From IMG/VR virus record IMGVR_UViG_3300036770_003016: a stretch of 64,000 nucleotides of DNA. One strand, given 5' to 3'. The stretch comes from a virus. The notes below the pieces were generated by a model that saw nothing but the letters and a program-made list of their open reading frames with translations, was not told the origin of the DNA and made no database searches. Below, in pieces: positions 7,833-31,045 of the stretch. Numbering within the stretch: position 1 is the first letter of the stretch; each line of letters starts with the position of its first letter. The translations under genes and the position numbers were made by a program.

Positions 7833-7846
7833 AGTTTTAACTCCTT

Positions 7847-7942
7847 CTAAAATATTTCCCATAGCATCCATAGTACGATGAGTCCTATAAGACCTACGAG
7901 AAAAGTGCCTATTATATCCACTAGTAACATATTGAAAAACAT
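7847..7942 (-). CDS. Small membrane protein (31 aa)
   Basis: Manual translation MFFNMLLVDIIGTFLVGLIGLIVLWMLWEIF. Confidence 0.5.
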   Translation of the reverse strand: MFFNMLLVDIIGTFLVGLIGLIVLWMLWEIF

Positions 7943-9647: not shown

Positions 9648-9868
9648 TTAAGTAACTCGTTTATGTTTTTGACTTGTTCTTCGACATCGTATTTATTTCC
9701 TACAGTAACAGGCACACACATACCACCTTTGTATTGTTTTGCATACTTCTCGCATGGTTCTTTTGTCTGCCAGGCCTCTACAAATACTGGTTTGGCACCA
9801 ACATGTGCAACAATTACGATTGCCCATATGATGTTCATACAATATCTTTCCAGAAAACTAGTTCCCAC
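9644..9868 (-). CDS. Small secreted/membrane hypothetical protein
   Basis: Hydrophobic N-terminal segment, Cys pair. Confidence 0.55.
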   Translation of the reverse strand: MGTSFLERYCMNIIWAIVIVAHVGAKPVFVEAWQTKEPCEKYAKQYKGGMCVPVTVGNKYDVEEQVKNINELLK

Positions 9869-13033: not shown

Positions 13034-13048
13034 AAAATACTCCAGTTA

Positions 13049-13705: not shown

Positions 13706-13706
13706 T

Positions 13707-14738
13707 CTATACCTTTTTCCAAAATGTAAATCTTGTTTGCGCTTCTAGACCTCTAAATGTGTTACTACTTATAATACTTTCTATTTCATCAGGTGATAAA
13801 CCATTCATTACCATCTCATTTATATCTTTTCCTTGCATGTGATTAGGCCATATTACAACAAAATGATCGGATCGTATTGCATCCTGCATCATCTTCACGA
13901 TTTCTTTATTCCTGGGTTCATTGTCAAAGATCAAAATCTTTTCATTTGCATTAACCATTTTTGCCGTTAATGAAAGATTGGCATCACCACTTGCAAGACA
14001 ATTATTTAGAAAAAGAGAATCTAGAGGGCCTTCTACTATCTTTACAGGTTTCATTAGATCAACTCTATCCATACCATATATCAGTTTATCTTCTGCATCA
14101 TTTGTGCGAAGAGTGACATATCGCAAAGTCTTATCACTAGTTTCCAATGCACGACCAGACACAGCAATCAATTCATTATACTCGTTATAGAATGGAATTA
14201 CAAGCCTTGCATCATCATATAATTGTTTACCATGATCAGGTACAAGTGTCGTAACGAACTGATTATAATGCTGTGTAAAGAGTAGTTTGTCGTAAAATTT
14301 TAGTGGAATCTGCCTTTTTGTCGCATATTCTAGGCAAAAATGTCCACTCGGTAGTTTACTAAGCCACTCTGCGTGTTCGAAGTATGATTTCTTTTTGAGT
14401 TTGTCAAATCTTGTTGGTGTGACTTGTAGTATCTTGGAAACTGTGTTGGAGTTATTGGTTTCACCAGATTTGAATCTGTCGAGTACATACTCTTTATATA
14501 GAGATGGGTCGACATGTTTGACAAGGTTACCCACATTTGTTCCTACTCCACAATTATGGCATTTATAGAACAAATCATTAATTTTTTGGTAAACATAACC
14601 ACGAGCCTTTGTTAAGTTCTTTTTCGAATCACCACAAATAGGGCAACTAAATTGGTAAGTATTTTCCTTCTTCTGCTTGAAATTACGCAGCCGAGAGGAA
14701 ACTAAGCGGATGTATTTATTATCAATGTGTAGAGACAT
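13707..14738 (-). CDS. 61: DNA primase (T4 gp61-like)
   Basis: CPICGDS..KARG, CHNC, VEGPLDSLF, DNEPRN, KDINEM. Confidence 0.95.
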   Translation of the reverse strand: MSLHIDNKYIRLVSSRLRNFKQKKENTYQFSCPICGDSKKNLTKARGYVYQKINDLFYKCHNCGVGTNVGNLVKHVDPSLYKEYVLDRFKSGETNNSNTVSKILQVTPTRFDKLKKKSYFEHAEWLSKLPSGHFCLEYATKRQIPLKFYDKLLFTQHYNQFVTTLVPDHGKQLYDDARLVIPFYNEYNELIAVSGRALETSDKTLRYVTLRTNDAEDKLIYGMDRVDLMKPVKIVEGPLDSLFLNNCLASGDANLSLTAKMVNANEKILIFDNEPRNKEIVKMMQDAIRSDHFVVIWPNHMQGKDINEMVMNGLSPDEIESIISSNTFRGLEAQTRFTFWKKV

Positions 14739-14776: not shown

Positions 14777-15259
14777 CTATTTTAATAGCATACCGATAAT
14801 ATCCGTATTAATGTGCCCAAGTGCAAAACCGGTTGCAATTGCCACTCCTAATATCAAATATTTGTAGTTCTCTATTCTACTCAATATTTCATTAATTTTC
14901 AACTTATTTTTGGTCTCATCATTGCCTTCATGATTTTTTAATTCATTTCTTAAGGCATCTATTTTATCACCTAAATGTTTTTCGGTAGAATCAATTTTAT
15001 CATGTAATTCTCTAGTTACTGTAGTAATTCTAGAGTGTAATTCTTTAATATCATCTTTCAATTCGTTTTCCGTTTTTGTATGGATATCATGCTTTTGATC
15101 ATGCAAAGATATCATTCTCAGTAAATTACCATTCAACTCTTGAATTTTATCAATTGAATCAGATAATTTGTTAGTAATTGTAGTTAGTAGTTCATTATCT
15201 TTTTTGAGAAGACCTATTTCCAATTTTAGGTCATGTAATTTTGTCTCTTCTGGATACAT
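14777..15259 (-). CDS. Coiled-coil protein with C-terminal TM helix (possible lysis accessory or holin)
   Basis: Heptad repeats plus LILGVAIATGFALG; directly downstream of the spanins. Confidence 0.6.
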   Translation of the reverse strand: MYPEETKLHDLKLEIGLLKKDNELLTTITNKLSDSIDKIQELNGNLLRMISLHDQKHDIHTKTENELKDDIKELHSRITTVTRELHDKIDSTEKHLGDKIDALRNELKNHEGNDETKNKLKINEILSRIENYKYLILGVAIATGFALGHINTDIIGMLLK

Positions 15260-15261
15260 TT

Positions 15262-15651
15262 CTATTTACCTTTTTCTGATGACTTTGGGGGCTCATAGTA
15301 ATTTTTATATTGTAATATAATTGTTCTCTGTTGTGCAATAAAATTACGCAATTCTGCCATTGTTATTGCCAACGATTCGTACCCGTCATCAGTCAAGGCA
15401 AACAAAACTAAATCTGTGTTTTCTTGGGTTAATTTTTGCCAAACTTGTTCGGCATTTTGTGGTGTTATTACTACCCATTTAATTTCCCTACCCTTTAATG
15501 GAGTAGGATCTGCTATATTTAAAGGTGTCCTTTCTACTTGTTTTGTTTGTATCTCTATTGGTTTAACTTCATCTCTTTTAAACCATGATAAAGCAGAGCA
15601 ACCACTAATTAGGGGAACTATAAGCAGGATTAATAAGTGATGGACATTCAC
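15262..15651 (-). CDS. Outer-membrane spanin lipoprotein (o-spanin)
   Basis: GTG start after GAGG; LLILLIVPLISG-C lipobox; overlaps the i-spanin 3' end. Confidence 0.75.
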   Translation of the reverse strand: MNVHHLLILLIVPLISGCSALSWFKRDEVKPIEIQTKQVERTPLNIADPTPLKGREIKWVVITPQNAEQVWQKLTQENTDLVLFALTDDGYESLAITMAELRNFIAQQRTIILQYKNYYEPPKSSEKGK

Positions 15652-16078
15652 GATTGGCCTCTGTTGGTGTTTTAGCGTTTTTTTCTTGTTCATTGAGTGG
15701 GGCACCTGACGCCAATTCCATACACCTAATTGCATTTTGGGTTCCACGATTCACAAGTCTCTCTACTACATTTGGTTTCTCTGATGCCAGAGCACCAAAA
15801 TCTCTTTTACTAAATTTTGTTGTAAGTGCTTCTTTATCTTTACTTAATTGTTCTTTTTGTTGATTTAATTCATCATTTATTTTTTTGATGGCTTCAATGT
15901 CAACTCTCATTTTTTCCATCAGTTCATGCTGATCTTTTATTCCTTGCTCAAGTTTAGCATTATTTGCCTGTGATACAGCAAGATCAGCTTTTAAATTTGT
16001 TACATGAAAAAACCCACCAGCTAATATTAGTATGATGATGAGGTATATAATTGGTTTTACAAATGCAAGTGGGTTCAT
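15605..16078 (-). CDS. Inner-membrane spanin (i-spanin)
   Basis: N-terminal TM helix, long coiled coil, C-terminal cysteines. Confidence 0.75.
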   Translation of the reverse strand: MNPLAFVKPIIYLIIILILAGGFFHVTNLKADLAVSQANNAKLEQGIKDQHELMEKMRVDIEAIKKINDELNQQKEQLSKDKEALTTKFSKRDFGALASEKPNVVERLVNRGTQNAIRCMELASGAPLNEQEKNAKTPTEANRECPSLINPAYSSPN

Positions 16079-17640
16079 TTTGGTTTTCTTGTGAACATGT
16101 TAAATGGAATAACTTTTTTCTTGTTCTTCTTATTGATACCTGGTTCACCTTGATCGCCAATTCCAAGACCTGCAATCTGACCACCACCAACATTGTTGAC
16201 TGATACTCCACCAACCATTCCACCAAATTCTTCAGGCATTGATGCTAGTTTTCTTGCATCTACATTAGGGAATGATCTGGCAACTTGTGCTGCATAGTAT
16301 AGTTTATCATGTCTTTTATCATTCTTTCTCTTTAAGAGGTCTGATAATGTTTTCTTGGCTTTATCATATTCATCAGAATGAATGTGTGGACTCAAAGCTT
16401 TCATAATTCCAAAATCTTCATCTAACTCAACTTCTTCATTCAAACCCTCTTTGCCAGGTGGCTGAATATTGTGTCTTGGTGAAGAGTTACCAAATGCAGA
16501 TGATGTCTTGACTTGTTCAGAGAATAAATGCACTCTTTTGTGACCTGTGACACTACCTTTTGTATCTTTTTGTGGAACATGTGCATGATAATGGATATAT
16601 TTGTCACCTGTTGGGGCTCTAGACACTTCTAATCTTGTCTCTGGGTCTCTAAGAAGATTAGATACTTTAGATTCGTGTGGAACTTCTACTTTTGATGTGA
16701 TACCTGTCTTTGCAGTACCATTTGTTGTTACTTTAGAATATGGCATTGGTGGTGTCTCAGAAGGTTCATCGTCTTTACCACCAGCATTTAAATAGTTATT
16801 CAGTAAAAAGTCTTTTACTTTTTGATGACCCTCAGGGCCAGAATTGATCATGCCCTGTAGATGATCAACTATATGATTTCTTATTCTGGCGTGACTATCA
16901 CTCTTTATCTTTTCATATTGTTGATGAAAGGCTTCATGTTCAGGTTTAGGCGATATAGGTTTACTCTTGTCACGATTGATTCGATTGCCACTTAGTTTTC
17001 TTAGTGCTTCTTTCTTCTCATTATTGGTCATTGAAGAAAAACCAGGCATAATTTTGTTTACATGTTTGTGTAGGTCATCATGTGCTTGTTGCCATAGTTT
17101 AGTTGTTGAAGAACCTAGCGCAGCATCCATGTGTTTGGGTGATGGATTTTTGAAACCAATATCACCTTTTGCTTTTTGTGTAGACTTGAGTGAGATGCCA
17201 TGGTAAATCATCTTACCAGTTTTCTTGTGCCTTAACCCAATTGTAACATCAGAAGGATTTAAAAGACCACTATCTTTGTGTTTACCTTTTGTTGCCTTTT
17301 CAATAGCACCATCTACATTTGTATGATGGACTTCTACCAGTTCATGATCTGGATATAATTCTCCCAAATGACTTTTAATTCTTTCTGCCTGTGCGAAACC
17401 ATGATTCTTACGATTCTCTAGATCGTCTTTACTCAACCTTGGAGATGCAGTATCATAGACAGATTTAGCTCTAGTTAATGTTTCTTGATTTTCTGGTCGT
17501 TTGAAATGTTTTGGGTGCAGATGTTTATGTATCAAAGCAGCTGCAGCAATAGTTTCAGTTACAGCACCAACTGATTGTTGTGTACCTTGTCCTGAAACTT
17601 TTTCTTCTTTTTCAATTAAAAATTCTGTGAAACGATTCAT
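16075..17640 (-). CDS. Probable head-internal protein with PD-(D/E)xK-like nuclease domain
   Basis: N-terminus MNRFTEFLIE; PSD...GISLK motif; internal EEVELDE. Confidence 0.6.
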   Translation of the reverse strand: MNRFTEFLIEKEEKVSGQGTQQSVGAVTETIAAAALIHKHLHPKHFKRPENQETLTRAKSVYDTASPRLSKDDLENRKNHGFAQAERIKSHLGELYPDHELVEVHHTNVDGAIEKATKGKHKDSGLLNPSDVTIGLRHKKTGKMIYHGISLKSTQKAKGDIGFKNPSPKHMDAALGSSTTKLWQQAHDDLHKHVNKIMPGFSSMTNNEKKEALRKLSGNRINRDKSKPISPKPEHEAFHQQYEKIKSDSHARIRNHIVDHLQGMINSGPEGHQKVKDFLLNNYLNAGGKDDEPSETPPMPYSKVTTNGTAKTGITSKVEVPHESKVSNLLRDPETRLEVSRAPTGDKYIHYHAHVPQKDTKGSVTGHKRVHLFSEQVKTSSAFGNSSPRHNIQPPGKEGLNEEVELDEDFGIMKALSPHIHSDEYDKAKKTLSDLLKRKNDKRHDKLYYAAQVARSFPNVDARKLASMPEEFGGMVGGVSVNNVGGGQIAGLGIGDQGEPGINKKNKKKVIPFNMFTRKPK

Positions 17641-18029
17641 TTAATTTTCCTTAGAGCGTTTGCTATGTTCATGTCAACTTCTATGCTTGAAGACATTATA
17701 TCACATCCTTTTATACCTTTTACTACATTTGGCATTATATTGAGAAACAACAAATATGTTTTTAGAGCAGAATAATCTTCTTTAGACATTTTATAGAACA
17801 ACATTCGTACAGCAGGTTCGGGACCGAAGACATTATATAAAACGACTAGATGATTTAGTACTAATTGTTCTTTAAGATCGTTGTTTTTGCGATACTTGTG
17901 AAACAATCTTTTAATATAGTTAAATCTTTTCATATCTTCTTTAAATTCACTCATGATAGTGTTAGGTTTATCATAACACTTCATTGCAAACATTAAGAAG
18001 TTTTCATTTGTTAAATCATCAAAAGCCAT
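17637..18029 (-). CDS. Conserved T4-like hypothetical protein
   Basis: ENF..FAMK.YD.P, EF.ED.KRF.YIKRL, LNHL..LYNVFG. Confidence 0.8.
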   Translation of the reverse strand: MAFDDLTNENFLMFAMKCYDKPNTIMSEFKEDMKRFNYIKRLFHKYRKNNDLKEQLVLNHLVVLYNVFGPEPAVRMLFYKMSKEDYSALKTYLLFLNIMPNVVKGIKGCDIMSSSIEVDMNIANALRKIK

Positions 18030-18466
18030 TAATTTTCTTCTTCGTCTTCCTCCTCATCCGACAGTAGTTCTTCCATACGAGCATCGTCTCCTACTTCAGC
18101 ATAAAACTCATAGTGACCTTCATCGGTGAGATAATATAAAACATATAAATTTGTCGTAAGATTTTCTTGCCCAAACTGATTTATATCAAGTACAAATTCA
18201 TCTCCTTCTGGATCAGCATCGTAAAGTGCTGGCAGATCAAAACCGTATCTGTGCAGCACTTTACGAATTGCCTGTATGCCACCTTCTGGAGAAAGAAATG
18301 GTTGATACAACTCGTTCATAAAGCGATAATTCATTTCCATTTGAACTTTTGAATTGTCAATATCGGATCTGGCCTCGCCAGTAGGCTCATGAGCCTCTTC
18401 TGCTTGACCAGCCTCGATATTTTTCAAATCAAGTTCTTGAAGATATTGTTTGAATCTCATTATCAA
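18029..18466 (-). CDS. Probable head-internal acidic protein
   Basis: N-terminus (MI)MRFKQYLQE. Confidence 0.65.
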   Translation of the reverse strand: MIMRFKQYLQELDLKNIEAGQAEEAHEPTGEARSDIDNSKVQMEMNYRFMNELYQPFLSPEGGIQAIRKVLHRYGFDLPALYDADPEGDEFVLDINQFGQENLTTNLYVLYYLTDEGHYEFYAEVGDDARMEELLSDEEEDEEEN

Positions 18467-19020
18467 TTGACAGTTAATGTTGCAGGATCAGATGTCACTG
18501 TGTCAGCACCTGTTGCAGAAACAGCAACTCTAAATTCATTTCCATTAGCATACCAAGAGTCAGTGCTCTCAACAGTTAATGTCTGAGAAGTAGCACCATT
18601 AATCTCTGTCCATGTTACACCAGAGTCATTGGTATAAGACCACTGATAAGAAACTGTTGCGCCACGGGTAGCTGTAGCTGAAGAAGTAAATACTGCTTCT
18701 GCTGGACTTGTAACTGTTGTATTTGCTGGTGGTGTTCCAATAGTAATAACTGGATCTGGATCGATAGTATCGTTATCAGTAACGATAGAACCCATTGCAA
18801 CTAGGCATTGATATGTTACACGACCTTCACGACCGCCAGTTCCCTCAGTACGAAGGTTCCAACCTGCGAGTGCGCTGTTAGTTACAGCTTCTTCTGGATC
18901 TAAAGCAAATGTTCCAACTGGTGTTTGTCCATAAGCCTCAACACCAGTCGCACCATTTGTAGTATCTACTGTGTGCTTTGGTGCAGAAGATGCTTCATCT
19001 GTATTTGACCATAAAGCCAT
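18463..19020 (-). CDS. Ig-like domain virion protein
   Basis: C-terminal Ig fold pattern: ITIGTPP, VSYQW, INGATSQTLTV, FRVAVS, TSDPATLTV. Confidence 0.8.
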   Translation of the reverse strand: MALWSNTDEASSAPKHTVDTTNGATGVEAYGQTPVGTFALDPEEAVTNSALAGWNLRTEGTGGREGRVTYQCLVAMGSIVTDNDTIDPDPVITIGTPPANTTVTSPAEAVFTSSATATRGATVSYQWSYTNDSGVTWTEINGATSQTLTVESTDSWYANGNEFRVAVSATGADTVTSDPATLTVN

Positions 19021-19044
19021 TTTTTTCTCCTTGAAATTTATGTT

Positions 19045-20058
19045 TTATTTATCTTCTTTTACTATCTCACTTGAAAGCACAGGTTTTTCCTGATATGTTT
19101 CTGAATCATTCTTTTTCTTTTTGACAATCTCTTTGATGATCTCTGATCTGCGAGATTCTTCTAAAGATTCTTTAACTGGTTTTGTATACTTCTTCATCGC
19201 CTGTCTTGCAAGGTGGCGTGCTGTAGAATAACCAGCACCTTGTTTACCAGCAATTGCTTGTTTCTTTGGTTTGTCTGGTGTAAATGGTGGTTTGAGTCTC
19301 TCTGTCTCTTGTCTTTCAATCTCTTGATTCTTATAGTATCCTTCTTCAAGATCAACTTCTTCTTTCTTCATGTCTTCAATTTCTTTTTTCTTTTGATCAC
19401 GAAGTTTTAGATAGTAGTCAGGATCAGGAAGACCTCTTCTCTTTCTTTCATCATCATGTGCTTTTTGTAGAGATTTTGATGCTGGAACTGAATCATATTC
19501 TTCTTCAGTAATTTCAACTGATTCACTATAATGTTGAGCATTTCCAGTACTTAGATGTTTCTTAAGTGCGTTGTGTATTTTACTTAGACCTGCTCTGATA
19601 TGATTCTCAGCCATTTCACCAGCAGCATAACCATGATGTCTTAGAATTTCACCATGCATATGATCTATTTTGTTTCCAATGAATTGACCAACACCACCTG
19701 CGGCAGTACCAAGAAGACTTTCATCAATCTCTTCTTCTTTAACCATACCAGTACGGCGTTTCTCACCCTCAATGAAAGAATGGAGACTTTCAAACTCACT
19801 AAAAGATTTAGCAACTTTTACTTGATACCACTCTTCTACTTCACCACCCTTTTCAATGTATTCCAAAATTTCTTTACATGCATATGAAATAAAATGTAGT
19901 TGAGATTGTGTCATCTCAACTTTTTCTGTAGTATCAGTTTCTTCCTTCATTTTCTGCATTGGTTCTTTATTTGGTTTCTGCTTATAAGTCATAGCAGCCA
20001 TAGAAGGCATATCTGGTTCTACATTAGTTTCTCGTACTAACTGTCTAAACTTTTTCAT
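19045..20058 (-). CDS. Probable head-internal modular protein
   Basis: MKKFRQLVRE; EEEIDE, VEITE, EEVDLEE spacers. Confidence 0.65.
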   Translation of the reverse strand: MKKFRQLVRETNVEPDMPSMAAMTYKQKPNKEPMQKMKEETDTTEKVEMTQSQLHFISYACKEILEYIEKGGEVEEWYQVKVAKSFSEFESLHSFIEGEKRRTGMVKEEEIDESLLGTAAGGVGQFIGNKIDHMHGEILRHHGYAAGEMAENHIRAGLSKIHNALKKHLSTGNAQHYSESVEITEEEYDSVPASKSLQKAHDDERKRRGLPDPDYYLKLRDQKKKEIEDMKKEEVDLEEGYYKNQEIERQETERLKPPFTPDKPKKQAIAGKQGAGYSTARHLARQAMKKYTKPVKESLEESRRSEIIKEIVKKKKNDSETYQEKPVLSSEIVKEDK

Positions 20059-21314
20059 GCCTTCTCCTTCGCAATTTTTGTAGCAGTGGCGTACATTACA
20101 CTTTTTGCACGATCACCATATCTTGCTTTGAACCCTTGTACATTCTTTTTCATTGACTTAACAATCTCTTCTTTCTTAGCAGTTTCTGGTTCAGAAAGTG
20201 TTTTCTCTTCTAGTTCAACTTCTTCTTGTTTTACTGCTTGCACAGAAGCCTTAGCAACTTCAGGTTGTTTCTTTTTTCCTTCCATACTTTTCTTTTGATC
20301 TTCTACTTCTTTAGTAAATTCTTCATTATCTGGTTCTTCTTTCATCATTGCAGCAATGAATTTTAAACCATGTGAATCATATGCTTCTAGAATATCTGTA
20401 AAACCAACTTGAACATCATCTTTTAATTCTCTGCCAGAAACTCTTCTAGAACGAACATAGTTCTGTCTGGCACCATATTTACCTCTTTTTGGTTTCTCAT
20501 CATCTTTTTTATAAGATGATTCACCATGCTCTTCTTCTTTACCTTGATAACCATAGTCTTGTGTCTTTCTTCTTTGACCTGGTTTAGAATCTTTTGGAAA
20601 CTTTTTCTCATATTCTGGTGTTCCTGGCCATAGTGCTTCGTCAAGTTCAACTTCTTCTTTTATTTTCTTTTCATCAGAACTCTTACCAAAAGTGCCATGT
20701 ACTAGTTTATCTAGTTTCTTATGAAATTTGTTTTCTTGAGTCTTAGAAGCTTCTTGAATATCTTCTTTTACTTGTTGACCATGCTTCATAGAGTTTGCTT
20801 TTTCTTTTTCTTTTTGAGCACGAAGAAGTTTAAAGTCATGTGCATCAACTTTTCCATTTTTGTTTGCATCAATCTTATGTTGATTGCCTTTTAATTCCTC
20901 ATCAATTTCTTCTTCCTCTTTAACAGGAACACAATTAGGTACTTTGCGACCATTTTTCATCTTCATGCCAACAGCAGTATACCCTTTCCAACATGCATCT
21001 TTGAGACTACCAGTTGGTTCTTTTACATCTTCTTTATGCATTGCCTTTTCATGTTTAGCAACTTCACCTTTTTTACCATGCATTTTCTTTTCATGTTTGT
21101 CTACGGCTTCTTCTGCCTCGTCTTCACATGATTCTTCTTTTTCTTCTTTTCTCAATACACCACGACCAATCAACACATCTTTGTGTGTGATCTTATCTTT
21201 TGGGTGACCCATTGCAGCAAGTTCTTTTTCCTTTTCTGTTTTTGGAGTAGAACCTTCTAAAATTCTTGCTGCTTCTTCAGCAACTTTTCTAGTGATATCA
21301 TTATTGAATTGCAT
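20055..21314 (-). CDS. Probable head-internal modular protein (K/E rich)
   Basis: EEEIDE, EEVELDE, EEVELEE spacers; CWKGY..VPNCVP module; EF-hand-like DANKNGKVDAHD. Confidence 0.65.
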   Translation of the reverse strand: MQFNNDITRKVAEEAARILEGSTPKTEKEKELAAMGHPKDKITHKDVLIGRGVLRKEEKEESCEDEAEEAVDKHEKKMHGKKGEVAKHEKAMHKEDVKEPTGSLKDACWKGYTAVGMKMKNGRKVPNCVPVKEEEEIDEELKGNQHKIDANKNGKVDAHDFKLLRAQKEKEKANSMKHGQQVKEDIQEASKTQENKFHKKLDKLVHGTFGKSSDEKKIKEEVELDEALWPGTPEYEKKFPKDSKPGQRRKTQDYGYQGKEEEHGESSYKKDDEKPKRGKYGARQNYVRSRRVSGRELKDDVQVGFTDILEAYDSHGLKFIAAMMKEEPDNEEFTKEVEDQKKSMEGKKKQPEVAKASVQAVKQEEVELEEKTLSEPETAKKEEIVKSMKKNVQGFKARYGDRAKSVMYATATKIAKEKA

Positions 21315-21331
21315 TTTAGTTCTCCTGAGTT

Positions 21332-22600
21332 TTAGTTATATTCTTCCCATGTCAATGACGCCACGGCATCATCGTTGTTTGTTGTTGCAATAGCTGATAC
21401 AACAAAAGTTTCCATAGTTCCATCTATTGTTGTTCTTAACTGATAACTTGAATTGTATTTTTTGAAGTCTACATTGGTTTGATTGACACCTGCACCACCC
21501 ATAAACATACCTTGTAACAAATTATCCCCACCAGACAAAGCAGTTCCAGTGATATTATATTCTACATGACTTTCTGGACCAGCACTTACCCATGTGCCGC
21601 CAGTAACAGTTGCATTTTGCAACATTCTGTAATTGAATGGTGTTGATTGTAACCCATATAAGTCTGCTGCGACTGGAACAACAACGCCGCCTGGTCTGTC
21701 TACTTTCAAACGAATTGCAATCATTGGTCTTGAAGTTACATTTGATAACTCAATACCTGTAAGTGGTGTTGATACTGCATGTGTAACTACTCTTGGACTA
21801 TGACCACCTTCTGATATGACCGTATTACAAATGTGTTCTAATGTGGTATTACTTGCAGTTGTTCCTGTATTTGTAATTTCATATCGTAAAGGTAAAGTTG
21901 CAGTTGTCATGTAAACAGAAGTAATCTTGTTTGCATGATGAAATTTGTGTGCAGTTAAAATGCGACCATCAACAACAAAACCAATGCGAATTGTACCAGC
22001 ACCTAACCATTCAAAATCAGACCAAAAGATTTGTGTCTTTGAAAAATCAAGAGTTACTTTACTGTAACCTGTTCCATCAAATTTATCTTCAGACCATTGC
22101 GATTGTGGAATTCTTTCTTCTTCAACAGAACCAGTTCTGAAACTTCTTTTTACAATGTATGCAGTTGTGCCATCATGTTCCAAATAAACACCATTTCTTG
22201 TATCAAAATAACCAATTCTTTGACGAACATTGGCCTTTGGTTGCATTGTACCAGTACTGAGTGTAAGTAAACTTTTTCCTGGTTGATAATGAAAGTATCT
22301 TTTTGTTTGACGAATAACTGAATCATTGTTCGCAGTACCAACTGTCATCAATACAGATGAAGTATTTGGTGAATGAACAACTGTTGTGTTTGCAGTATTT
22401 GATATAGACCAATTTCTTGTATCATCAGTATATCTCAATGTACTATCAAAAATTGTATGTGGTTCGGAAACACGAATACGACCAAAAGCATCACGAATTG
22501 TACCACCAGGTGATAGCTGATCGTCAAGCATGAACACCTCAAAACGAGTTGTTACTTGACCTGAATCAATAATCTTAAGATCGTTACGATATTGTGCCAC
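21332..22600 (-). CDS. Beta-rich virion structural protein (lectin-like)
   Basis: Thr/Val/Gly-rich; DAFGRIRVS, YQPGKS, EWLGAG motifs; GTG start. Confidence 0.65.
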   Translation of the reverse strand: MAQYRNDLKIIDSGQVTTRFEVFMLDDQLSPGGTIRDAFGRIRVSEPHTIFDSTLRYTDDTRNWSISNTANTTVVHSPNTSSVLMTVGTANNDSVIRQTKRYFHYQPGKSLLTLSTGTMQPKANVRQRIGYFDTRNGVYLEHDGTTAYIVKRSFRTGSVEEERIPQSQWSEDKFDGTGYSKVTLDFSKTQIFWSDFEWLGAGTIRIGFVVDGRILTAHKFHHANKITSVYMTTATLPLRYEITNTGTTASNTTLEHICNTVISEGGHSPRVVTHAVSTPLTGIELSNVTSRPMIAIRLKVDRPGGVVVPVAADLYGLQSTPFNYRMLQNATVTGGTWVSAGPESHVEYNITGTALSGGDNLLQGMFMGGAGVNQTNVDFKKYNSSYQLRTTIDGTMETFVVSAIATTNNDDAVASLTWEEYN

Positions 22601-23518
22601 TTAGCAATTCCACTTTCTTAATGCTTTGTTAATACGAGAATCTGGATCATTTGCTGTCTTAGCAGATGTCAATCGTTTTTTCATGCCACCCATTCTGGCA
22701 CAAAATGATTTGCGTCTCTTTGCAGACTTAGAATCTGGGTCTAGTTTAGATGGTTTTGTAGTCACAGCAGTCTGTAACTTTGAACCTGGATTCTCACGGC
22801 GATATGATTCAACACCTTTTTGATTCAGACCACCTTCAGGATTTTTACCTTCTTTTCTCTGCCATGCTGCAACCTCATCAAGTTCAACTTCTTCTTTTAC
22901 TTTTTTATATTGTTTCTGCAATACTTTTAATGCATCTTTTGTTACTTTATCAGTTTTTTCTGGTTTTGCTTTTTTACCTACTGGCAATCCTTCTGCACCA
23001 CGACTGGAAGATGGTTGAGATTTATCCATTTCATCAAGTTCAACTTCTTCACTATATGAACGATTACTTTTTGGATCATAACCACCTAAAGGATATGCTG
23101 AAGGTGATGGGGGACGAGGAGCAATTGGTTTCTTTGCAGCTGCTTCATGTCTCTTTTTTACTTCTTCTGCATCTTTTGCTCTTGACTCTGGTGTTGAAAC
23201 TTTTGCATTAGGAAATCTCTCTTTTGCAAATTTAGCAACATAAGAATCTTCTTCTTTGATATGGCCATATTTTTTCTTATACCAATTAGGCATACCATTT
23301 TTTTGTCTGAAATATCTAACTGTTGCAGAATCATTTGCTTGATCACGATACTTGTTTTCTGCTTGAGTATTGTGTCCTTTCATTGCTTCTGCTGCTTTAT
23401 GAGCATCTTTAGCAATATAAACAAGTTCTGCATCTGTTTTGCGATGGTATTCGTGTCCTTCAAGTGGGTGTCTTTGAGAAGGGCGACCTTCTGTTATGTA
23501 AGATTTAAATGACTTCAT
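22601..23518 (-). CDS. Probable head-internal modular protein with conserved C-terminal basic domain (DUF6321-like)
   Basis: MKSFKSYITE; two EEVELDE; WQRKEGKNPEGGLN...RRKSFCARM..DSRINKALRKWNC. Confidence 0.7.
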   Translation of the reverse strand: MKSFKSYITEGRPSQRHPLEGHEYHRKTDAELVYIAKDAHKAAEAMKGHNTQAENKYRDQANDSATVRYFRQKNGMPNWYKKKYGHIKEEDSYVAKFAKERFPNAKVSTPESRAKDAEEVKKRHEAAAKKPIAPRPPSPSAYPLGGYDPKSNRSYSEEVELDEMDKSQPSSSRGAEGLPVGKKAKPEKTDKVTKDALKVLQKQYKKVKEEVELDEVAAWQRKEGKNPEGGLNQKGVESYRRENPGSKLQTAVTTKPSKLDPDSKSAKRRKSFCARMGGMKKRLTSAKTANDPDSRINKALRKWNC

Positions 23519-25848
23519 CCTATTGGCCTCTTTGATCTAAATGTTTTTAGGTTCATACCTTTTTTCTTTAAACCATCTTCAACTTGTGCAGATATAGATG
23601 CAGTTGTTTCATCACCAGTAAGTTCTTCTAATGGTTTTTTAATTTGTTTTACTTTTAATGTACCACGACTCATGTTCTCACCTGATGCAGCCATTGAAAG
23701 ACCAGGTTCTATCCCCTTGTCGATCTCGCTGAGGGTTTCTTCTTGAAGTTTCTCTTTTTTTGCCCTGATTTCTGCGAGGGTAATTTTTGTGGTTCTGGTT
23801 TCTTGGCTGGTTTCTTTTGTGTTACTGAGTCTGTAATCTGATCGTTCACTGAGGAGGGCAGAGACTTCTTGTTGATCTTTGGTTCTACCCGAATATTCGG
23901 TGGAATCTCTGAGTACTTGTTGACTTTCTCTGTTGCTGCCCTCACTGGACCATCCAATGGATGACTCTGTGGTTTCTCTTCCGTCATTCCAAAAAATTTC
24001 TGTAATAGTTTCATTAACATCGTTATTCTCCTTTAATTGCACGACATAACCGTTTTTGTATCTCAAGACCAATCCATTGTGTGTATGTGCTTCTTTTGCT
24101 GCAGCAGCTCTTAACATAAACACACGAACACGACCAGTCTTATCTTTCATTAACTTAGGTTCTTTTTCTTCACCTATCTTAAAATCATGTTCATCAATTG
24201 CATTACCAAGCAATAATAGATTCAATGCAGATGAGTCTGATAGTTCATATGATTCTTTGAACATCTTATCAAAAGCACTAAGTCTTGGTTTTGATTTTTT
24301 ATTCTCAACCTTTGGTTTAGGTTTAGATTTTGGTGTACCAGATGAACTAGAAATAGGTATCTTTTGTTGTTTTTGTTCTTGTGGTTTTACTTCGACAAGT
24401 TTATCATGTACAGAACGATGTGTCACTCTTCCATTTTTGCCGTATCTACCAAACCCGTAATACTTAAGTCCCAATTCTTTTGCCTGTTCTGCTGCTCTAG
24501 AACCTTCATGTGGAACAATCTCTTTACTTGTGTCTACTTTATATGTGTCTTTTTTATCTAGTTCTGCTGCAACCCATTCTTTTGCAGCTTTATTCTTAGG
24601 TGGTGCCGTAACAAATTTTTGTACAGTTTTAAATAACTCTGTAATTTCTTTTTCTTTTTGTTGCACTACTTCTGGTGGTGCATTTCTTAAATCTTCTGAG
24701 TTATCAAACTCTGTATAGTTTTGTCCAAACAATTTTGCATATTCAGGTCTTGCAGCCTGTACAGCATCCCATTTCTGTTTACGAATGTCTTCTGGTACTG
24801 TGCGACCACCTCTTTGTCCTCTTTCTACATTCCTTGCAGCAGAGACTTCATCATCAGTATTGACCATGATTCCACTTGTTTCATAACCATGTTTCTCAAG
24901 ACTACTTTTAATTCTTTTAATCTTTTCTACATCATCACCTGTACCATTAATAATGAGTCCATTCTTTCCAACAAGTGCCAAGTATTGTTTTAATTCAGTA
25001 ACATTTTTTGCACGACTACGAACAGCATTTCTAACTTCTGTTTCGGATTTAGGCATTGTCTTATCAAGACCTTCTTTGTCCATAAGAAACTCAAATGCTT
25101 TATCAGAATTAATTTCAATCAGACCTTGATTATCGAGTGTTCTAGATAACACATAATCTTTTCCAGAACCTGGGCCACCAAAAAGAAATACTGCTTTGAA
25201 TATAGATTTATCGTGAACACCTTCTACCAAGAATTCTTCAAACTCTTCGTTAATGTCTTCTCTAATCATCATTCCTTTGCGAACATCATTGTACATTGCC
25301 TTGACTGTATCAAGTGGCATCGTAGATGGAGCACCTTTTTTAAATTTTGCAAATTTTCCTTGTGCAGCAAACTCACGCATTTTAGATGCAGAAATACCAG
25401 CAACTCCATCTGCATCAGGGTCTCTTTCTCCAGCAGAATGAACTTCTATCTTTTTGAATTTGAAAAGATCACCATTGTAAGTATTAAGTAATCTTTTGAA
25501 TTCTGGCACACGATCAGAACCACCTACCATGTGTAGATGTGTATAACCTGCCTTATACAGGTCTGCGGCTTGTGATAGGAAATTAGGGGAAGTTGCGTTT
25601 GAAGATTTGAATGTGACGCCAGGAAAAGACATCTTGGCGTATTTGACTTTTTGTGCTGCGGAGAGTGGATTTTTCTTTTTATCTTGTGTGTGGGAAAGAA
25701 TTATGATTGCTTTTCCACCAACTTCTTGTGCTACAGCCTTGACTTTTTTAACCAATTCTTGGTGGCCGTTGGTAATAGGATTCATGCGGCCAAATGCCAT
25801 AACCACATGTTTTTCTTCTTTTTCAGTAAGGTATTCTTTAAATCTCAT
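23515..25848 (-). CDS. Cytidyltransferase-like (HIGH-class) nucleotidyltransferase fused to a P-loop kinase (PNK/zeta-toxin-like)
   Basis: FGRMNPITNGH, GSDR, SASKMR; GGPGSGK, INSD, RNVER..RTVPE; N-terminus MRFKEYLTE. Confidence 0.8.
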   Translation of the reverse strand: MRFKEYLTEKEEKHVVMAFGRMNPITNGHQELVKKVKAVAQEVGGKAIIILSHTQDKKKNPLSAAQKVKYAKMSFPGVTFKSSNATSPNFLSQAADLYKAGYTHLHMVGGSDRVPEFKRLLNTYNGDLFKFKKIEVHSAGERDPDADGVAGISASKMREFAAQGKFAKFKKGAPSTMPLDTVKAMYNDVRKGMMIREDINEEFEEFLVEGVHDKSIFKAVFLFGGPGSGKDYVLSRTLDNQGLIEINSDKAFEFLMDKEGLDKTMPKSETEVRNAVRSRAKNVTELKQYLALVGKNGLIINGTGDDVEKIKRIKSSLEKHGYETSGIMVNTDDEVSAARNVERGQRGGRTVPEDIRKQKWDAVQAARPEYAKLFGQNYTEFDNSEDLRNAPPEVVQQKEKEITELFKTVQKFVTAPPKNKAAKEWVAAELDKKDTYKVDTSKEIVPHEGSRAAEQAKELGLKYYGFGRYGKNGRVTHRSVHDKLVEVKPQEQKQQKIPISSSSGTPKSKPKPKVENKKSKPRLSAFDKMFKESYELSDSSALNLLLLGNAIDEHDFKIGEEKEPKLMKDKTGRVRVFMLRAAAAKEAHTHNGLVLRYKNGYVVQLKENNDVNETITEIFWNDGRETTESSIGWSSEGSNRESQQVLRDSTEYSGRTKDQQEVSALLSERSDYRLSNTKETSQETRTTKITLAEIRAKKEKLQEETLSEIDKGIEPGLSMAASGENMSRGTLKVKQIKKPLEELTGDETTASISAQVEDGLKKKGMNLKTFRSKRPIG
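23709..24020 (-). CDS. Nested +1-frame basic protein inside 23515..25848
   Basis: AAGGAG 7 nt before ATG; natural-looking sequence MLMKLLQKFFG...KKPAKKP. Confidence 0.6.
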   Translation of the reverse strand: MLMKLLQKFFGMTEEKPQSHPLDGPVRAATEKVNKYSEIPPNIRVEPKINKKSLPSSVNDQITDSVTQKKPAKKPEPQKLPSQKSGQKKRNFKKKPSARSTRG

Positions 25849-25878
25849 CTCCGCCTCTACAGCAGTTGTTTAATGTAC

Positions 25879-25886
25879 TATTTATA
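25879..25886 (-). promoter_or_regulatory. T4-type late promoter
   Basis: TATAAATA about 30 nt upstream of 25848. Confidence 0.8.
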
Positions 25887-25907
25887 TAATTTACTCTTTA
25901 CGAACTT

Positions 25908-26810
25908 TCAAATTGTATTTCCATGCAGTTTCAAATATTGTTTGATATCTTTAACAGGATTCCATCCTAACATGTTCTTAGCTTTATCATTATTTGCAAG
26001 TGTTTCTCTTGATTCAGCAGGCCTTGGTGGAATAAATTTTATTAGTGAAGAAATCATTTTTGCTAATTCTAAAATAGAATAATTTTTACCAGTTCCAATG
26101 TTAAAAGTTTCACCAGAAATATTTTTATATTCACCCATAGCTAAAATATTTGCATCAACAACATCACTCACATGAGTAAAATCACGGCGTTGTAATCCAT
26201 CACCAACAATCGTAAGTGGTTCTCCTGCTTTAGCCTGTCGTATAAAGAGACCAACTACTGGTGCATAAGGACCCTTTAATGGTTCTCTTGGACCATAGAC
26301 ATTGAAGTAACGAAAAATAACAGTCTCAAGACCAAACAGTTTTGAATACATTTTACACATTTCTTCACCAGCAGTTTTAGCAACAGAATACGGATTTAGA
26401 CAATCGTTAGGCATTGTTTCTGTTAAAGGTAGAGTATTTTTAAGACCATATGCTGAAGATGTGGAAGAATAAATTACTCTTTTTACTTTTGCTTCTCTCG
26501 CACATTGAAGAACTACGCCAGTTCCATATGCGTTTGTATTAAAACAAAGTAAAGGATTTTGAATTGCAGGCTGAATTCGTGATTCTGCTGCTAGATGAAA
26601 AACATAATCTACACCTTCAAATAAATGTCGTATTCCACAATAATCTGATATATCATTCTTGTAGTATTTGGCACTTGAGTTATACCAAAAATTTTCATGT
26701 GAAGTTGCAGATTCATTATCAATCACAATTACTTCATGGCCAAGTTCACACAATTTATCTACAATGTGACTTCCAATAAATCCTGCTCCACCAGTTACTA
26801 TACTTTTCAT
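25908..26810 (-). CDS. NAD-dependent epimerase/dehydratase
   Basis: GGAGFIGS, YSVAK (YxxxK), YFNVYGP, RDFTHVSD. Confidence 0.92.
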   Translation of the reverse strand: MKSIVTGGAGFIGSHIVDKLCELGHEVIVIDNESATSHENFWYNSSAKYYKNDISDYCGIRHLFEGVDYVFHLAAESRIQPAIQNPLLCFNTNAYGTGVVLQCAREAKVKRVIYSSTSSAYGLKNTLPLTETMPNDCLNPYSVAKTAGEEMCKMYSKLFGLETVIFRYFNVYGPREPLKGPYAPVVGLFIRQAKAGEPLTIVGDGLQRRDFTHVSDVVDANILAMGEYKNISGETFNIGTGKNYSILELAKMISSLIKFIPPRPAESRETLANNDKAKNMLGWNPVKDIKQYLKLHGNTI

Positions 26811-27662
26811 TTAACCACCATATTTAACATTAATTATATTTTCCCAATCCAATATTCTATCATACTGATGAACAATAGGATAAGGCACACCTTTGCTCGT
26901 ACAAACTAAACCATCAATCATTTTGGGTGAAGGTTCAGTCAAATATGTTTTATCATATTTTGGAGCATGAATGTGTAATTGACATGCAAACCCATCTTCA
27001 CTTTTATTAAAGTTTGTAATATTTTTATATGGATTCATCGACATTAAAATATTCAAACTACTTTGATCTTGTATGTACTTTATTCTCTTATCATACATTA
27101 AAGATAAAGTAGTGAATAGATCAAGAACATAATCAAATTCTCCAGATACAATACCAACATTCATCACCAAATCATTTGCAGTTTTATCAAGGAATCTTTG
27201 ACCAAAAACACCTAACATCGTTTCTCTATTCCAAGGCTCATCTTTAACTAATATTGATTCACAACAGATATTTAATTTTTTGTCTCCAATATTATTTTCT
27301 AACCAAACAGAAGGATTTGATTGGAAAATCACATCTCTCACATCAGTAGAAATGATATATCTAAATTTTTCTTCTTTTGCTAAACTTTTCAGAAAGAATG
27401 GTATGTGTTCAAATCGATCATTATTAATATTTAATGGATTTTTATAAACTAGTTTTCTGTTTTCATCATCTCTATCAAATGCAAGAACAATATAATTTCT
27501 TTCATTTAATTTCTCAACAACATCATAATCAATGTTATAGCATACCATTATTTTTTTACCAGTAAACCCACAATTGTCTAGTGAATTTACCCAATTTTTT
27601 ATTTTGTCCCAACCATAATTAGTTATAGCACCAATCACAATATCATTCATACTATTCTCCAA
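26811..27662 (-). CDS. GT-A fold glycosyltransferase-like protein
   Basis: TDVRDVIFQSNP, DQSSLN, IVHQYDR. Confidence 0.7.
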   Translation of the reverse strand: MENSMNDIVIGAITNYGWDKIKNWVNSLDNCGFTGKKIMVCYNIDYDVVEKLNERNYIVLAFDRDDENRKLVYKNPLNINNDRFEHIPFFLKSLAKEEKFRYIISTDVRDVIFQSNPSVWLENNIGDKKLNICCESILVKDEPWNRETMLGVFGQRFLDKTANDLVMNVGIVSGEFDYVLDLFTTLSLMYDKRIKYIQDQSSLNILMSMNPYKNITNFNKSEDGFACQLHIHAPKYDKTYLTEPSPKMIDGLVCTSKGVPYPIVHQYDRILDWENIINVKYGG

Positions 27663-27665
27663 TAA

Positions 27666-27938
27666 TTAACCTCTTGTCAATTTCAAAATCTTTTGCATTT
27701 GTTGTTCTAATACAGGACCACGATTGGGCCAATGTATATATGGTTGAGATGCAGACTTGTAAAGATTAGTTAGGAATGGCATGACAATCTTTTCAACTTG
27801 TGCTAATCTTTGTTTATATTCTTCCACAGTTTCATCTTTTTGAGCAATTACAGCTTCATACTCTGCCTCATCTACAGCTGTAAAACCAAAATCTTGATCA
27901 CCATATTCAGACAGTATTTTATTTAGATCATATGCCAT
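27666..27938 (-). CDS. Conserved hypothetical protein
   Basis: DFGFTAVDE, PFL.NL, YIHWPNR. Confidence 0.75.
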   Translation of the reverse strand: MAYDLNKILSEYGDQDFGFTAVDEAEYEAVIAQKDETVEEYKQRLAQVEKIVMPFLTNLYKSASQPYIHWPNRGPVLEQQMQKILKLTRG

Positions 27939-29170
27939 TACTTACTCCAATTCTTTGCAGCATTAAAATTATTTTTACTGAATTCTAATCTATCTATAAG
28001 TTTTAAAGCACCACCACTCAATCTATCAACAGCAACAAATCCTTCTGGGCCTGTAACTTTGAAACCATCATCAGTTTTCACAAATGTATCTACAGAAGAT
28101 TTTATAGTTTCCAATTTCTTAACTATAATATTTTTTGCTTCAACGATAGAGTTCATTAGATCAAATATAAGTTTTAGTTGTGCTGCATTTGTTCTATAGA
28201 ACCTCATCAGATCATTTTTTTCTGTTAATCGTTTTTGTTTCGTATCTTCTTTTTTAGATGCTAGAATTTCTTTGTTCAATCTTTCTTCAACCCATTTTTG
28301 CAATTCAGTCACATGTCTGGCTGTATTTGTGATTGCTTTACCTTCACGAACTTTAGTATTATTGAAAGTTTTAATTTGCATAAGAATTGTTGGAGATGCA
28401 GCGATACGATTTAGAACTAATGGTGTTATTGATCTAAATGTTCTACCTGCATCAGAAAGAATAGAAGTTATTTCTTTAGTTTCATCTTTAGTAAAAGTTG
28501 CTGTACCAGAAGCATCAACAAAAGACGCATCACGAAACCAAACATCTTTTGTTGTTTTAAAATGACCAATATCTATGTTAAAAGTTGCCTTCAAAGTATC
28601 CATAGATTTACCAAAGTATGCCGTATGAAACACAATACCAATTTGTGCATCCAACATTTTACGAGCCATTATCGTATCAGAAGGAATAGCATATACGATA
28701 GTGTTTGGTTGAAATGTTATATATGAAGTTCCATCTATTTGTCTTCTATCTATATCACCTTTAGTGAACAATAGATCACCCTGATAGATTCCATTGAAAC
28801 CAAGTTTAGGTAAAAATGCAAGTGCAGTTTTAAGTTTAGAATTTAAACCTGGATTAGGATGATTGTTATCAATGTCTTCATCTGTATAGTTTAGTTTGCC
28901 TTCTTTATTGAATACTGATTTAGTACCAACGAAGAACTTTCCGTTATCTGGATTAATACCACAGATAACAGCAGGTGCACCATCCCATTTTGTTGTGACA
29001 TTTATTTTACTTTGAGAATGACCAGCCAACATGTCACGAAGAGATTGAAGAAAGTTTATCGATTCTCTAGCACCCATGATGCCACGATTAAGAACATTAT
29101 CTTCCAAATGTTCAAGATGAAGGTTGGCGCCTTCTTTAGAAGACTCTTTTAAATAATCTTTGAATTTCAT
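27938..29170 (-). CDS. Conserved T4-like protein (DUF6267-like) with KxDG ligase-like motif
   Basis: HLEHLED, TTKWDGAPA, QGDLLF, PEGFVA, LKLIDRLEFS; N-terminus MKFKDYLKE. Confidence 0.75.
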   Translation of the reverse strand: MKFKDYLKESSKEGANLHLEHLEDNVLNRGIMGARESINFLQSLRDMLAGHSQSKINVTTKWDGAPAVICGINPDNGKFFVGTKSVFNKEGKLNYTDEDIDNNHPNPGLNSKLKTALAFLPKLGFNGIYQGDLLFTKGDIDRRQIDGTSYITFQPNTIVYAIPSDTIMARKMLDAQIGIVFHTAYFGKSMDTLKATFNIDIGHFKTTKDVWFRDASFVDASGTATFTKDETKEITSILSDAGRTFRSITPLVLNRIAASPTILMQIKTFNNTKVREGKAITNTARHVTELQKWVEERLNKEILASKKEDTKQKRLTEKNDLMRFYRTNAAQLKLIFDLMNSIVEAKNIIVKKLETIKSSVDTFVKTDDGFKVTGPEGFVAVDRLSGGALKLIDRLEFSKNNFNAAKNWSK

Positions 29171-30489: not shown

Positions 30490-31045
30490 AATGTAAATAA
30501 CCACCTATAATATATTTAGGACCACTAATTGGTTTCATTCCTATGTGTGGGTGTGTCCACAAAGGAGGAAACATTAACAACCTGCCACAAACAGGTTTCA
30601 CTTTTTGAAGTATAATCGAATCTCTATTGTATTGAAATGCAGTCTCGCCACCTTTATCAACATCGTTCAGATAAAAGAAGTATACAAGAAAACGCCTTGC
30701 AGTGGCGTAATCTTGTACATCGACATGAAACTGAAATTCATCTTCATCATTTGGTAAATATCTTTTGATGCGAAACATTTCGTAACCGACTTGTTCTGGC
30801 CATGCCATAGAATCAATATTGAACTGAGTCATGTACTTGCCTAAATTATACTGCATTACATCTAATAATTTATTTTGTACATCTTCCCACTCTTTATGTT
30901 TTGTAATATTGATTTCTTTGAAAGAACGATGATCTTTTAAAACTGTAGACTCTTGTTGATCTACATTCTTTTCAAATCTTTCAATAATACTTTGACAAAA
31001 TTCTTTTTCCAAAGCATTGTCATAATAAGTTACATAGTGCATCAT
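30482..31045 (-). CDS. 2OG-Fe(II) oxygenase
   Basis: HVD, YLNDV..GGET, FPPLWTHPH, KYI. Confidence 0.9.
   Translation of the reverse strand: MMHYVTYYDNALEKEFCQSIIERFEKNVDQQESTVLKDHRSFKEINITKHKEWEDVQNKLLDVMQYNLGKYMTQFNIDSMAWPEQVGYEMFRIKRYLPNDEDEFQFHVDVQDYATARRFLVYFFYLNDVDKGGETAFQYNRDSIILQKVKPVCGRLLMFPPLWTHPHIGMKPISGPKYIIGGYLHYV

Follow-up and report, generated by a model that had tools for sequence, protein, structure and literature searches.

A gene block between the helicase and primase genes of a T4-like phage carries leaders resembling the T4 capsid targeting sequence

Results

Six neighboring genes open with the same leader peptide

The stretch of DNA analyzed here, called the window throughout, comprises 64,000 nucleotides (nt) of IMG/VR virus record IMGVR_UViG_3300036770_003016. 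This 64-kb window is the gp41–gp61 replication region of an uncultured, aquatic T4-like myophage, and every gene in it lies on the minus strand. Between the helicase and primase genes sits a block in which six open reading frames (ORFs) begin with one short peptide, M-x(1-2)-F-x-x-[FYL]-[LIV]-x-E (starts at 17640, 18460, 20058, 23518, 25848, and 29170). This leader and the proteins that carry it are the subject of the present report. An earlier, sequence-only reading of the window had likened the leader to the capsid targeting sequence of T4 internal proteins and had proposed that the block encodes injected capsid cargo.

We number leader positions back from the cleaved Glu, so that P7, P4, P3, and P1 correspond to residues 4, 7, 8, and 10 of T4 IPIII. 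All six leaders have Phe at P7 and Phe, Tyr, or Leu at P4, and they end in LIE, LQE, VRE, ITE, LTE, and LKE. The six N-termini put forward by the sequence-only reading are all present on the minus strand, with one adjustment: in the second ORF the motif stands, but the start is moved from TTG at 18466 to ATG at 18460, which is preferred because it lies 2 nt past the upstream stop codon and better fits the family pattern.

The motif is confined to the block, as had been claimed. In a six-frame translation of all 64 kb, the expression used in that reading matches these six starts only, with 0 matches among the other ~82 genes. From the amino-acid composition of the window, 0.001 leader starts are expected per 88 genes, and a chance origin of the six leaders was rejected on this basis. 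The six genes fall within 13 consecutive genes (chance P < 2.4e-4); the leaderless genes among them encode a DUF7207 protein, an Ig-like head protein, a 419-residue polyprotein, a phrog_1645 virion protein, an epimerase, a glycosyltransferase, and a 90-residue ORF. The leader codons differ among the six genes, and the synonymous differences indicate that selection acts on the peptide. Positions of the features are collected in Table 1.

Table 1. Genes, leaders, and internal sites of the block and its borders (window coordinates; protein sizes in amino-acid residues).
Feature	Position	Strand	Content
gp61 primase	13707-14738	-	PHROG
521-residue protein	16075-17640	-	Leader MNRFTEFLIE; restriction-endonuclease-like domain (~19-400); EEVELDE site (nt 16417-16437); variable module; Gly-rich/basic tail
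143-residue acidic protein (25% D+E)	18029-18460	-	Leader MRFKQYLQE; directly upstream of DUF7207 gene
185-residue protein	18463-19020	-	No leader; 'head protein' family phrog_613
337-residue Lys/Glu-rich protein	19045-20058	-	Leader MKKFRQLVRE; EEVDLEE site (nt 19342-19362)
419-residue Lys/Glu-rich polyprotein	20055-21314	-	No leader; EEEIDE; EEVELDE (nt 20637-20657); EEVELEE (nt 20205-20225)
422-residue virion structural protein	21332-22600	-	No leader; phrog_1645, E 8e-121
305-residue protein	22601-23518	-	Leader MKSFKSYITE; basic region; EEVELDE (nt 23030-23050 and 22874-22894); C-terminal DUF6321
777-residue polyprotein	23515-25848	-	Leader MRFKEYLTE (nt 25822-25848)
Internal leader-like site of the 777-residue protein	25222-25242	-	F203-E-E-F206-L207-V-E209, then G210; interdomain linker
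T4-type late-promoter -10 box TATAAATA	25879-25886	-	31 nt upstream of the 777-residue protein gene
90-residue ORF	27666-27938	-	Weak aliphatic leader version MAYDLNKILSE
410-residue DUF6267 protein	27938-29170	-	Leader MKFKDYLKE (nt 29144-29170), then RNA-ligase-like nucleotidyltransferase
gp41 helicase	31042-32448	-	PHROG

The leader is conserved at the positions that function in T4 and is portable

In the T4 IPIII leader, residues 4 and 7 carry targeting and residues 8 and 10 processing, and the gp21 protease cleaves after L/I-x-E (PMC9026906). To follow these positions, we used homologue sets gathered by similarity of the mature domains, which are hence unbiased by the leader. The pattern M-[KN]-F-x-[EDQ]-[FY]-L-x-E is retained in 120 close homologues of the 410-residue protein. 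Among relatives of the 777-residue protein (n = 119), Phe at P7 and Glu at P1 are invariant, P4 is Phe or Tyr, and P3 is Leu or Ile, with 12 different residues at P2. Judged from these alignments, the conserved leader positions are the same four that were mapped as functional in T4. In AlphaFold2 (AF2) models of the 410- and 777-residue proteins, the leaders and the internal linker site of the latter fall in segments of low predicted local distance difference test (pLDDT) score outside the folded domains.

A survey of the DUF6267 family shows how variably the leader is attached. From 150 representatives clustered at 50% identity, we considered the 116 in which the domain starts within the first 60 residues. 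The leader stands a few residues ahead of the conserved HLEHLED start of the domain in 57; 20 begin directly at the domain, like the orthologues of the cyanophages S-PM2 and S-CRM01; and 39 have longer N-termini without a clean match, some of which show the motif slightly further in.

We then applied a general form of the leader expression to 80 IMG/VR contigs around DUF6267 genes. It is found on 107 of 913 same-strand ORFs versus 1 of 179 antisense ORFs, over an internal background of 0.05 per 1000 residues. The bearers include DUF6267 proteins (53), nucleotidyltransferase-kinases (13), and more than 25 unrelated clusters, among them HAD-type phosphatases and stand-alone DUF6321 proteins. The general expression is tuned to this lineage and undercounts, missing several evident leaders in Methylophilales phage Melnitz; in a control with the 277 ORFs of T4, it returned just IPII, IPIII, and gene 61.1. 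On these sequence comparisons, the leader is a portable, optional N-terminal module borne by unrelated proteins.

Two side observations concern further bearers. T4 gene 61.1 (NC_000866, 18966-19130, minus strand; 54 codons; MKTFKEFIKE...) adjoins the primase gene, near the position that the block occupies here. A RimK-like ATP-grasp protein starts with the leader in Melnitz (82-1131; MTQKFSQFITE) and in the relative L085 (216-1289; MTQSFSNFIVE), which suggests that a peptide-ligase-type enzyme may also be capsid cargo in some relatives.

Leader-bearing homologues are present in cyanophage virions

In the cyanomyovirus S-CREM2, 52 of 221 proteins were detected by mass spectrometry in CsCl-purified virions (PMC10665884). 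Six annotated S-CREM2 genes start with the leader, and the products of five of them are in the virion list (hypergeometric P = 0.003): the SAM lyase gp6, gp13, the kinase gp14, gp136, and the cytidylyltransferase gp154. The last is homologous to the first domain of the 777-residue protein (36% identity, E 6e-31), and the alignment spans the leader. In S-CRM01, g130, annotated as a Ser/Thr kinase, starts with MISFDQFLSE; a kinase in S-CRM01 virions is mentioned, citing Dreher 2011, in the S-CREM2 study (PMC10665884). NMNAT-like proteins and kinases are described as recurrent, unexplained virion components (PMC10665884, PMC9602691).

Leader-like sites also occur 18-25 residues into S-CREM2 gp12 (7704-10313, minus strand; RFASFMAE, then AA) and S-CRM01 g128 (12400-12951; LDSFIKE, then AA), suggesting that some cargo may carry longer propeptides. 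S-CREM2 gp12 was detected in virions and is annotated as Cas9-like, with no Pfam match.

Two leader-bearing proteins resemble nucleic-acid and nucleotide enzymes

The sequence-only reading had listed ligase-like, nucleotidyltransferase/kinase, and nuclease-like enzymes among the cargo. For the ligase-like protein, the 410-residue member of Pfam DUF6267 (E 1e-115), this call agrees with a KxDG motif and with matches to RNA-ligase folds. K61-W-D63-G64 corresponds to motif I and is at least 90% conserved in 115 diverse DUF6267 members. The AF2 model (pLDDT 92, with the leader low) was compared with known structures in an exhaustive VIA search, in which the top seven matches are six RNA ligases and one tRNA ligase, aligned over 174-207 residues. 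The Z scores are modest, ranging from 8.7 to 6.8 (5cot 8.7, 1xdn 8.3, 6n0t 8.0, T4 Rnl2 7.8), and the matches include Naegleria RNA ligase (Z 8.7), REL1, Trl1, T4 Rnl2, and Rnl1. Foldseek against the PDB gave no significant match to the model, with ligases recurring among the weak rows, so that the VIA search alone pointed consistently to one family, and a sequence search of solved structures with the 410-, 777-, and 521-residue proteins gave no match. Based on this motif and its predicted structure, the 410-residue protein is RNA-ligase-like and probably belongs with the ATP-dependent RNA/DNA ligase superfamily.

Pfam domains and fold also agree on the nucleotidyltransferase/kinase call. The 777-residue protein matches Pfam CTP_transf_like, Zeta_toxin, and AAA_33 and a PHROG cytidyltransferase family. 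Behind the leader come a HIGH-superfamily nucleotidyltransferase (residues ~12-197) and a P-loop kinase (~212-435), which are joined by a disordered linker, and then a C-terminal part that varies. For residues 1-440, the AF2 model contains two confident domains, with the leader and residues 198-211 at low pLDDT. In Foldseek searches with this model, both domains align to NadR (6gyf and 1lw7; E 1.5e-5), and ATP sulfurylase-APS kinase outscores NadR. Polynucleotide, adenylate, and UMP/CMP kinases are equally good matches to the kinase domain on its own, and the nucleotidyltransferase domain on its own matches PPAT and NaMNAT. A choice between a NadR-like and a polynucleotide-kinase-like substrate was therefore dropped, as the fold matches do not discriminate between them. 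Thus, in the model, residues 1-440 are a HIGH-superfamily nucleotidyltransferase joined to a P-loop kinase, an architecture common to NadR and ATP sulfurylase-APS kinase. In other phages, domains of the ligase-like, kinase, and nucleotidyltransferase types are found fused in varying order.

The linker between the two domains contains a second, internal copy of the leader pattern. In 120 homologues this site keeps Phe at P7, Leu or Phe at P4, Leu or Ile at P3, and Glu at P1, with seven residues at P2. Pelagibacter phage HTVC008M encodes the kinase in an ORF of its own, whose start, MIPFILKE followed by GLYDP, falls at the point of the linker site. The site is a candidate cleavage point that would part the nucleotidyltransferase from the kinase. 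In the variable C-terminal part, four homologues of the 777-residue protein (P0283, P0286, P0312, and P0298) have a HicA-like (PF07927) or HD (PF01966) domain, and the tail of the polyprotein thus appears to be a slot for exchangeable modules.

Between the genes of the 410- and 777-residue proteins, small leader-bearing ORFs occupy the position of the 90-residue ORF in the relatives L085 and L094. A nucleotide-sugar epimerase and a glycosyltransferase, both leaderless, are also encoded there (25908-27662, minus strand). The near-identical relative L004 has an additional UDP-glucose dehydrogenase at this position (12361-14040), which points to a variable sugar-metabolism islet inside the block.

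A putative nuclease-like protein and charged polyproteins share probable protease-cleavage joints

The nuclease-like call applies to the 521-residue protein and is backed by invariant E...D...SxK residues, together with weaker structural leads. E29, D131, S150, and K152 are invariant in 20 homologues (34-84% identity); by analogy with HinP1I and MspI they are putative catalytic residues. The Atlas structural neighbors of the protein are the HaeIII, MspI, HinP1I, and HpaII restriction endonuclease families, with template modeling (TM) scores of 0.35-0.40 by query and 0.45-0.78 by target. These likenesses to restriction endonucleases are a lead and do not amount to proof. BLASTP found no similarity between the 521-residue protein and a 361-residue leader protein at the equivalent position in Melnitz.

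The C-terminal ~40 residues of the 521-residue protein (16075-16200) are rich in Gly at first and then basic (NNVGGGQIAGLGIGDQGEPGINKKNKKK...). Motifs like this tail are seen in S-CREM2 gp160 (virion-detected), S-PM2 p150, a 172-residue Melnitz protein, and HTVC008M gp143; in Melnitz, HTVC008M, S-PM2, and S-CRM01, proteins with such motifs stand at the end of the equivalent block. None of these likenesses is significant in BLASTP.

The other leader proteins, which are basic or acidic and either small or of low complexity, have counterparts as well. In the relative L030, DUF6321, which forms the C-terminus of the 305-residue protein, stands alone directly behind the leader. Counterparts of the 143-residue protein gene are likewise upstream of DUF7207 in Melnitz (MKNFKNHIAE) and HTVC008M (MKSFKDFQNVNE).

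EEVELDE or close variants occur six times in the window and are confined to the 305-, 337-, 419-, and 521-residue proteins. Two such motifs are present in the Melnitz block and none in the cyanophage loci examined. Their codons vary. In L004, the counterpart of the 419-residue protein contains an extra module of 64 residues bracketed by EEVE... sites, and in homologues of the 521-residue protein the sequence past EEVELDE is swapped or missing. The joints agree with L-x-E and are probably where a protease cuts one module from the next; possibly they also favor recombination. Together, the internal sites suggest that several modules can be loaded by a single tag and may be exchanged between phages at the joints.

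A Cys-bracketed mini-module, e.g. CWKGYTAVGMKMKNGRKVPNC and CWPGYKPVPGKKAFEPGSC, is found in the polyproteins (residues ~107-129 of the 419-residue protein; the insertion in L004 16413-17531). It also occurs in small leader-bearing ORFs of relatives (e.g. L034 19102-19479).

The block lies at a conserved position and reads as part of a late operon

A PHROG scan of the window identified PhoH, NrdA/B, ThyX, UvsX, the gp43 polymerase, PstS, the clamp and clamp loader, gp46/47, and a UvsW-like protein. The isolates closest in protein similarity are Melnitz (46%), HTVC008M (41%), Stenotrophomonas phage DLP_6, and the cyanomyoviruses. A megablast search with the block as query found no match among 50,697 phage records. 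A comparable block is found in the gp41...gp61 interval of Melnitz, HTVC008M, S-PM2, and S-CRM01. For DLP_6 the comparison covered just the genes that lie downstream of the helicase; the block of S-CREM2 is upstream of the primase but does not adjoin the helicase. A Peptidase_S77 prohead protease is encoded by Melnitz, HTVC008M, and DLP_6, as well as by S-CREM2 (gp143).

Late promoters had been proposed at 25879 and 29197. The former is present as TATAAATA; near the latter, upstream of the 410-residue protein gene, we found not the full box but CATAAATA, which has one mismatch to it. The genes from 25848 down to 16075 abut or overlap and include the phrog_1645 and phrog_613 virion-protein genes, and the region thus reads as one late operon.

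The operon ends in a lysis-like cassette (14777-16078, minus strand). It contains a 157-residue ORF (15605-16078) with an N-terminal membrane helix and a coiled coil, i-spanin-like; an overlapping 161-residue ORF (15262-15747) with the lipobox LISGC, o-spanin-like; and a 160-residue ORF (14777-15259) with a C-terminal membrane helix. Small membrane-protein and lipoprotein ORFs that match these are found at the lysis-cassette position in Melnitz and HTVC008M.

Discussion

The leader is most probably a T4-type capsid targeting sequence, whose bearers would be loaded into the prohead, cut by a gp21-type protease, kept in the head, and ejected with the DNA. The four mapped positions, the portability of the leader, and the leader-bearing homologues in cyanophage virions all support this assignment, which the sequence-only reading had made. 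By analogy with T4, it is very probable that the head of this phage contains, next to the DNA, enzymes as well as small basic proteins.

For this phage, docking, cleavage, retention, and ejection are what we infer from the T4 system, and they may be envisaged as follows. Late in infection, the proteins would be expressed together with virion proteins encoded in the same operon. Through its aromatic residues at P7 and P4, the leader would bind to the scaffolding core as the prohead assembles, and a gp21-type prohead protease would cut after the Glu of L/I-x-E, freeing the mature proteins inside the head. The similar site in the linker would allow the nucleotidyltransferase-kinase fusion to be cut, and the EEVELDE joints the Lys/Glu-rich polyproteins, so that one tag would load several modules. 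The enzymes would be retained in the head alongside the DNA that fills it and would pass into the host together with that DNA.

Several observations weigh against this model. The DUF6267 orthologues of the cyanophages S-PM2 and S-CRM01 are without the leader, and packaging of DUF6267 proteins is thus not universal. The general motif gives no match in HTVC008M, whose leaders deviate. The 419-residue polyprotein has joints yet lacks a leader. One S-CREM2 leader gene, gp175 (55 residues), is undetected in virions, and the authors of that proteome caution that abundant proteins may co-purify with virions (PMC10665884). No gp21-type (Peptidase_S77) protease gene is found within the 64-kb window. 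Finally, TATAAATA is not enriched in the window (5 found versus 5.7 expected).

An alternative that we consider unlikely, though it may hold for the Lys/Glu-rich polyproteins, keeps the prohead as the target but assigns the bearers another fate. Most of them, above all the 305- and 337-residue proteins together with the 419-residue polyprotein, would be accessory core or scaffold proteins or sources of DNA-associated peptides; like T4 gp22, gp67, and gp68, their products would be chopped and largely expelled or kept as counter-ions rather than injected as effectors. These three proteins are indeed of low complexity, with 33-43% charged residues and one to three EEVELDE-type joints each, the 419-residue protein has no leader, and in T4 the core proteins are processed to numerous fragments, most of which exit the head (PMC9026906). 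A core role, however, leaves unexplained why folded enzymes (ligase-like, nucleotidyltransferase-kinase, restriction-endonuclease-like) carry the leader, and a leader-bearing SAM lyase and kinase were recovered in mature S-CREM2 virions. Moreover, modules that follow the joints, DUF6321 among them, are conserved domains.

Leaders that unrelated phage proteins have in common can mean other things, and the N-terminus could in principle be a tag for non-capsid machinery such as a modifying enzyme, a chaperone, secretion, or degradation. We regard this as very improbable: no candidate partner enzyme is conserved beside the block, the hydrophilic, amphipathic leader is unlike a signal peptide, it agrees with the T4 sequence at every functionally mapped position, and leader-bearing proteins are enriched in the S-CREM2 virion proteome. 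Least credible of all is an mRNA or translation-initiation feature (A/T-rich codons after ATG) or a recent duplication of a 5' gene segment, for although the leaders are AT-rich and lie at gene starts, their synonymous codons differ, homologues vary in a position-specific manner in amino acids (P2 free; P1, P3, P4, and P7 fixed), the motif is met again within a protein, where two domains join 600 nt from any start, and other genes of the window are without it.

A capsid targeting leader would place the block next to several known systems, the closest of which are the internal proteins of T4. IPII and IPIII (also IPI and Alt; IPIII MKTYQEFIAE) have an N-terminal leader of ~10 residues with aromatics at 4 and 7 and L/I-x-E at 8-10, carried, as here, by otherwise unrelated proteins of a T4-type myophage, and the T4 cargo includes an enzyme, Alt. 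In contrast to T4, the cargo here is unrelated and comprises large enzymes and multi-module polyproteins with internal joints, and its genes form one helicase-primase block. Read by analogy, the known T4 mechanism, a leader together with gp21, would here operate in a different branch of the T4 superfamily, on cargo unlike that of T4 and larger, and on protease-jointed polyproteins.

Cyanomyoviruses (S-CREM2, S-SCSM1, S-CBWM1, and S-CRM01) carry NMNAT-like or cytidylyltransferase proteins and kinases in their virions. S-CREM2 gp154 is homologous to the first domain of the 777-residue protein, and the kinases of S-CREM2 and S-CRM01 are leader-bearing; the nucleotidyltransferase described here differs in being fused to a P-loop kinase and other modules. 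The papers on these phages (PMC10665884, PMC9602691) mention no targeting sequence. That the leader lets T4-like phages load varied proteins has been suggested in reviews (including PMC9026906), but we found no link in the literature between the T4 capsid targeting sequence and virion-associated enzymes of aquatic T4-like phages. A full-text search for cyanophages together with the capsid targeting sequence returned only a T4 review, in which cyanophages appear just in the references.

Polyvalent virion-embedded effectors (Iyer et al., 2017, PMC5512222; PMC9503650) also combine several enzyme domains in one polypeptide with predicted early delivery alongside the DNA, and the relatives of the 777-residue protein that add HicA or HD modules resemble them. 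Such effectors typically rely on MuF, portal, or further head domains as anchors, whereas the proteins of the block would be loaded by a cleavable T4 leader and would have protease joints between their modules. Giant phiKZ-like phages (phiKZ, 201phi2-1, and SPN3US) similarly have head-internal proteins cut after Glu by a gp21-related protease; they differ in cleavage after S/A-x-E, in long propeptides instead of a 10-residue tag, and in lineage.

What the packaged enzymes might do can be proposed only tentatively. The RNA-ligase-like sealer, the P-loop (polynucleotide-type) kinase, and the HIGH-superfamily nucleotidyltransferase could form a pre-packaged repair kit that is delivered with the DNA and reverses tRNA/RNA breaks or nucleotide-cofactor depletion caused by abortive infection before the phage expresses its genes. 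In relatives, HAD phosphatases and HD and HicA modules might join this kit. If this proposal is true, the injected proteome of abundant aquatic myophages would be readable from sequence alone.

Work on the T4 capsid targeting sequence has mostly dealt with T-even coliphages. In the present case such a tag marks an enzyme block in a lineage that is very abundant in aquatic metagenomes, and thousands of homologues were found for the DUF6267 and nucleotidyltransferase-kinase proteins. The leader offers a simple explanation of why NMNAT-like enzymes, kinases, and a SAM lyase appear among the virion proteins of cyanophages. If it acts as in T4, the proteins that a phage injects would become predictable from sequence, and the predictions could be tested with existing mass-spectrometry data.

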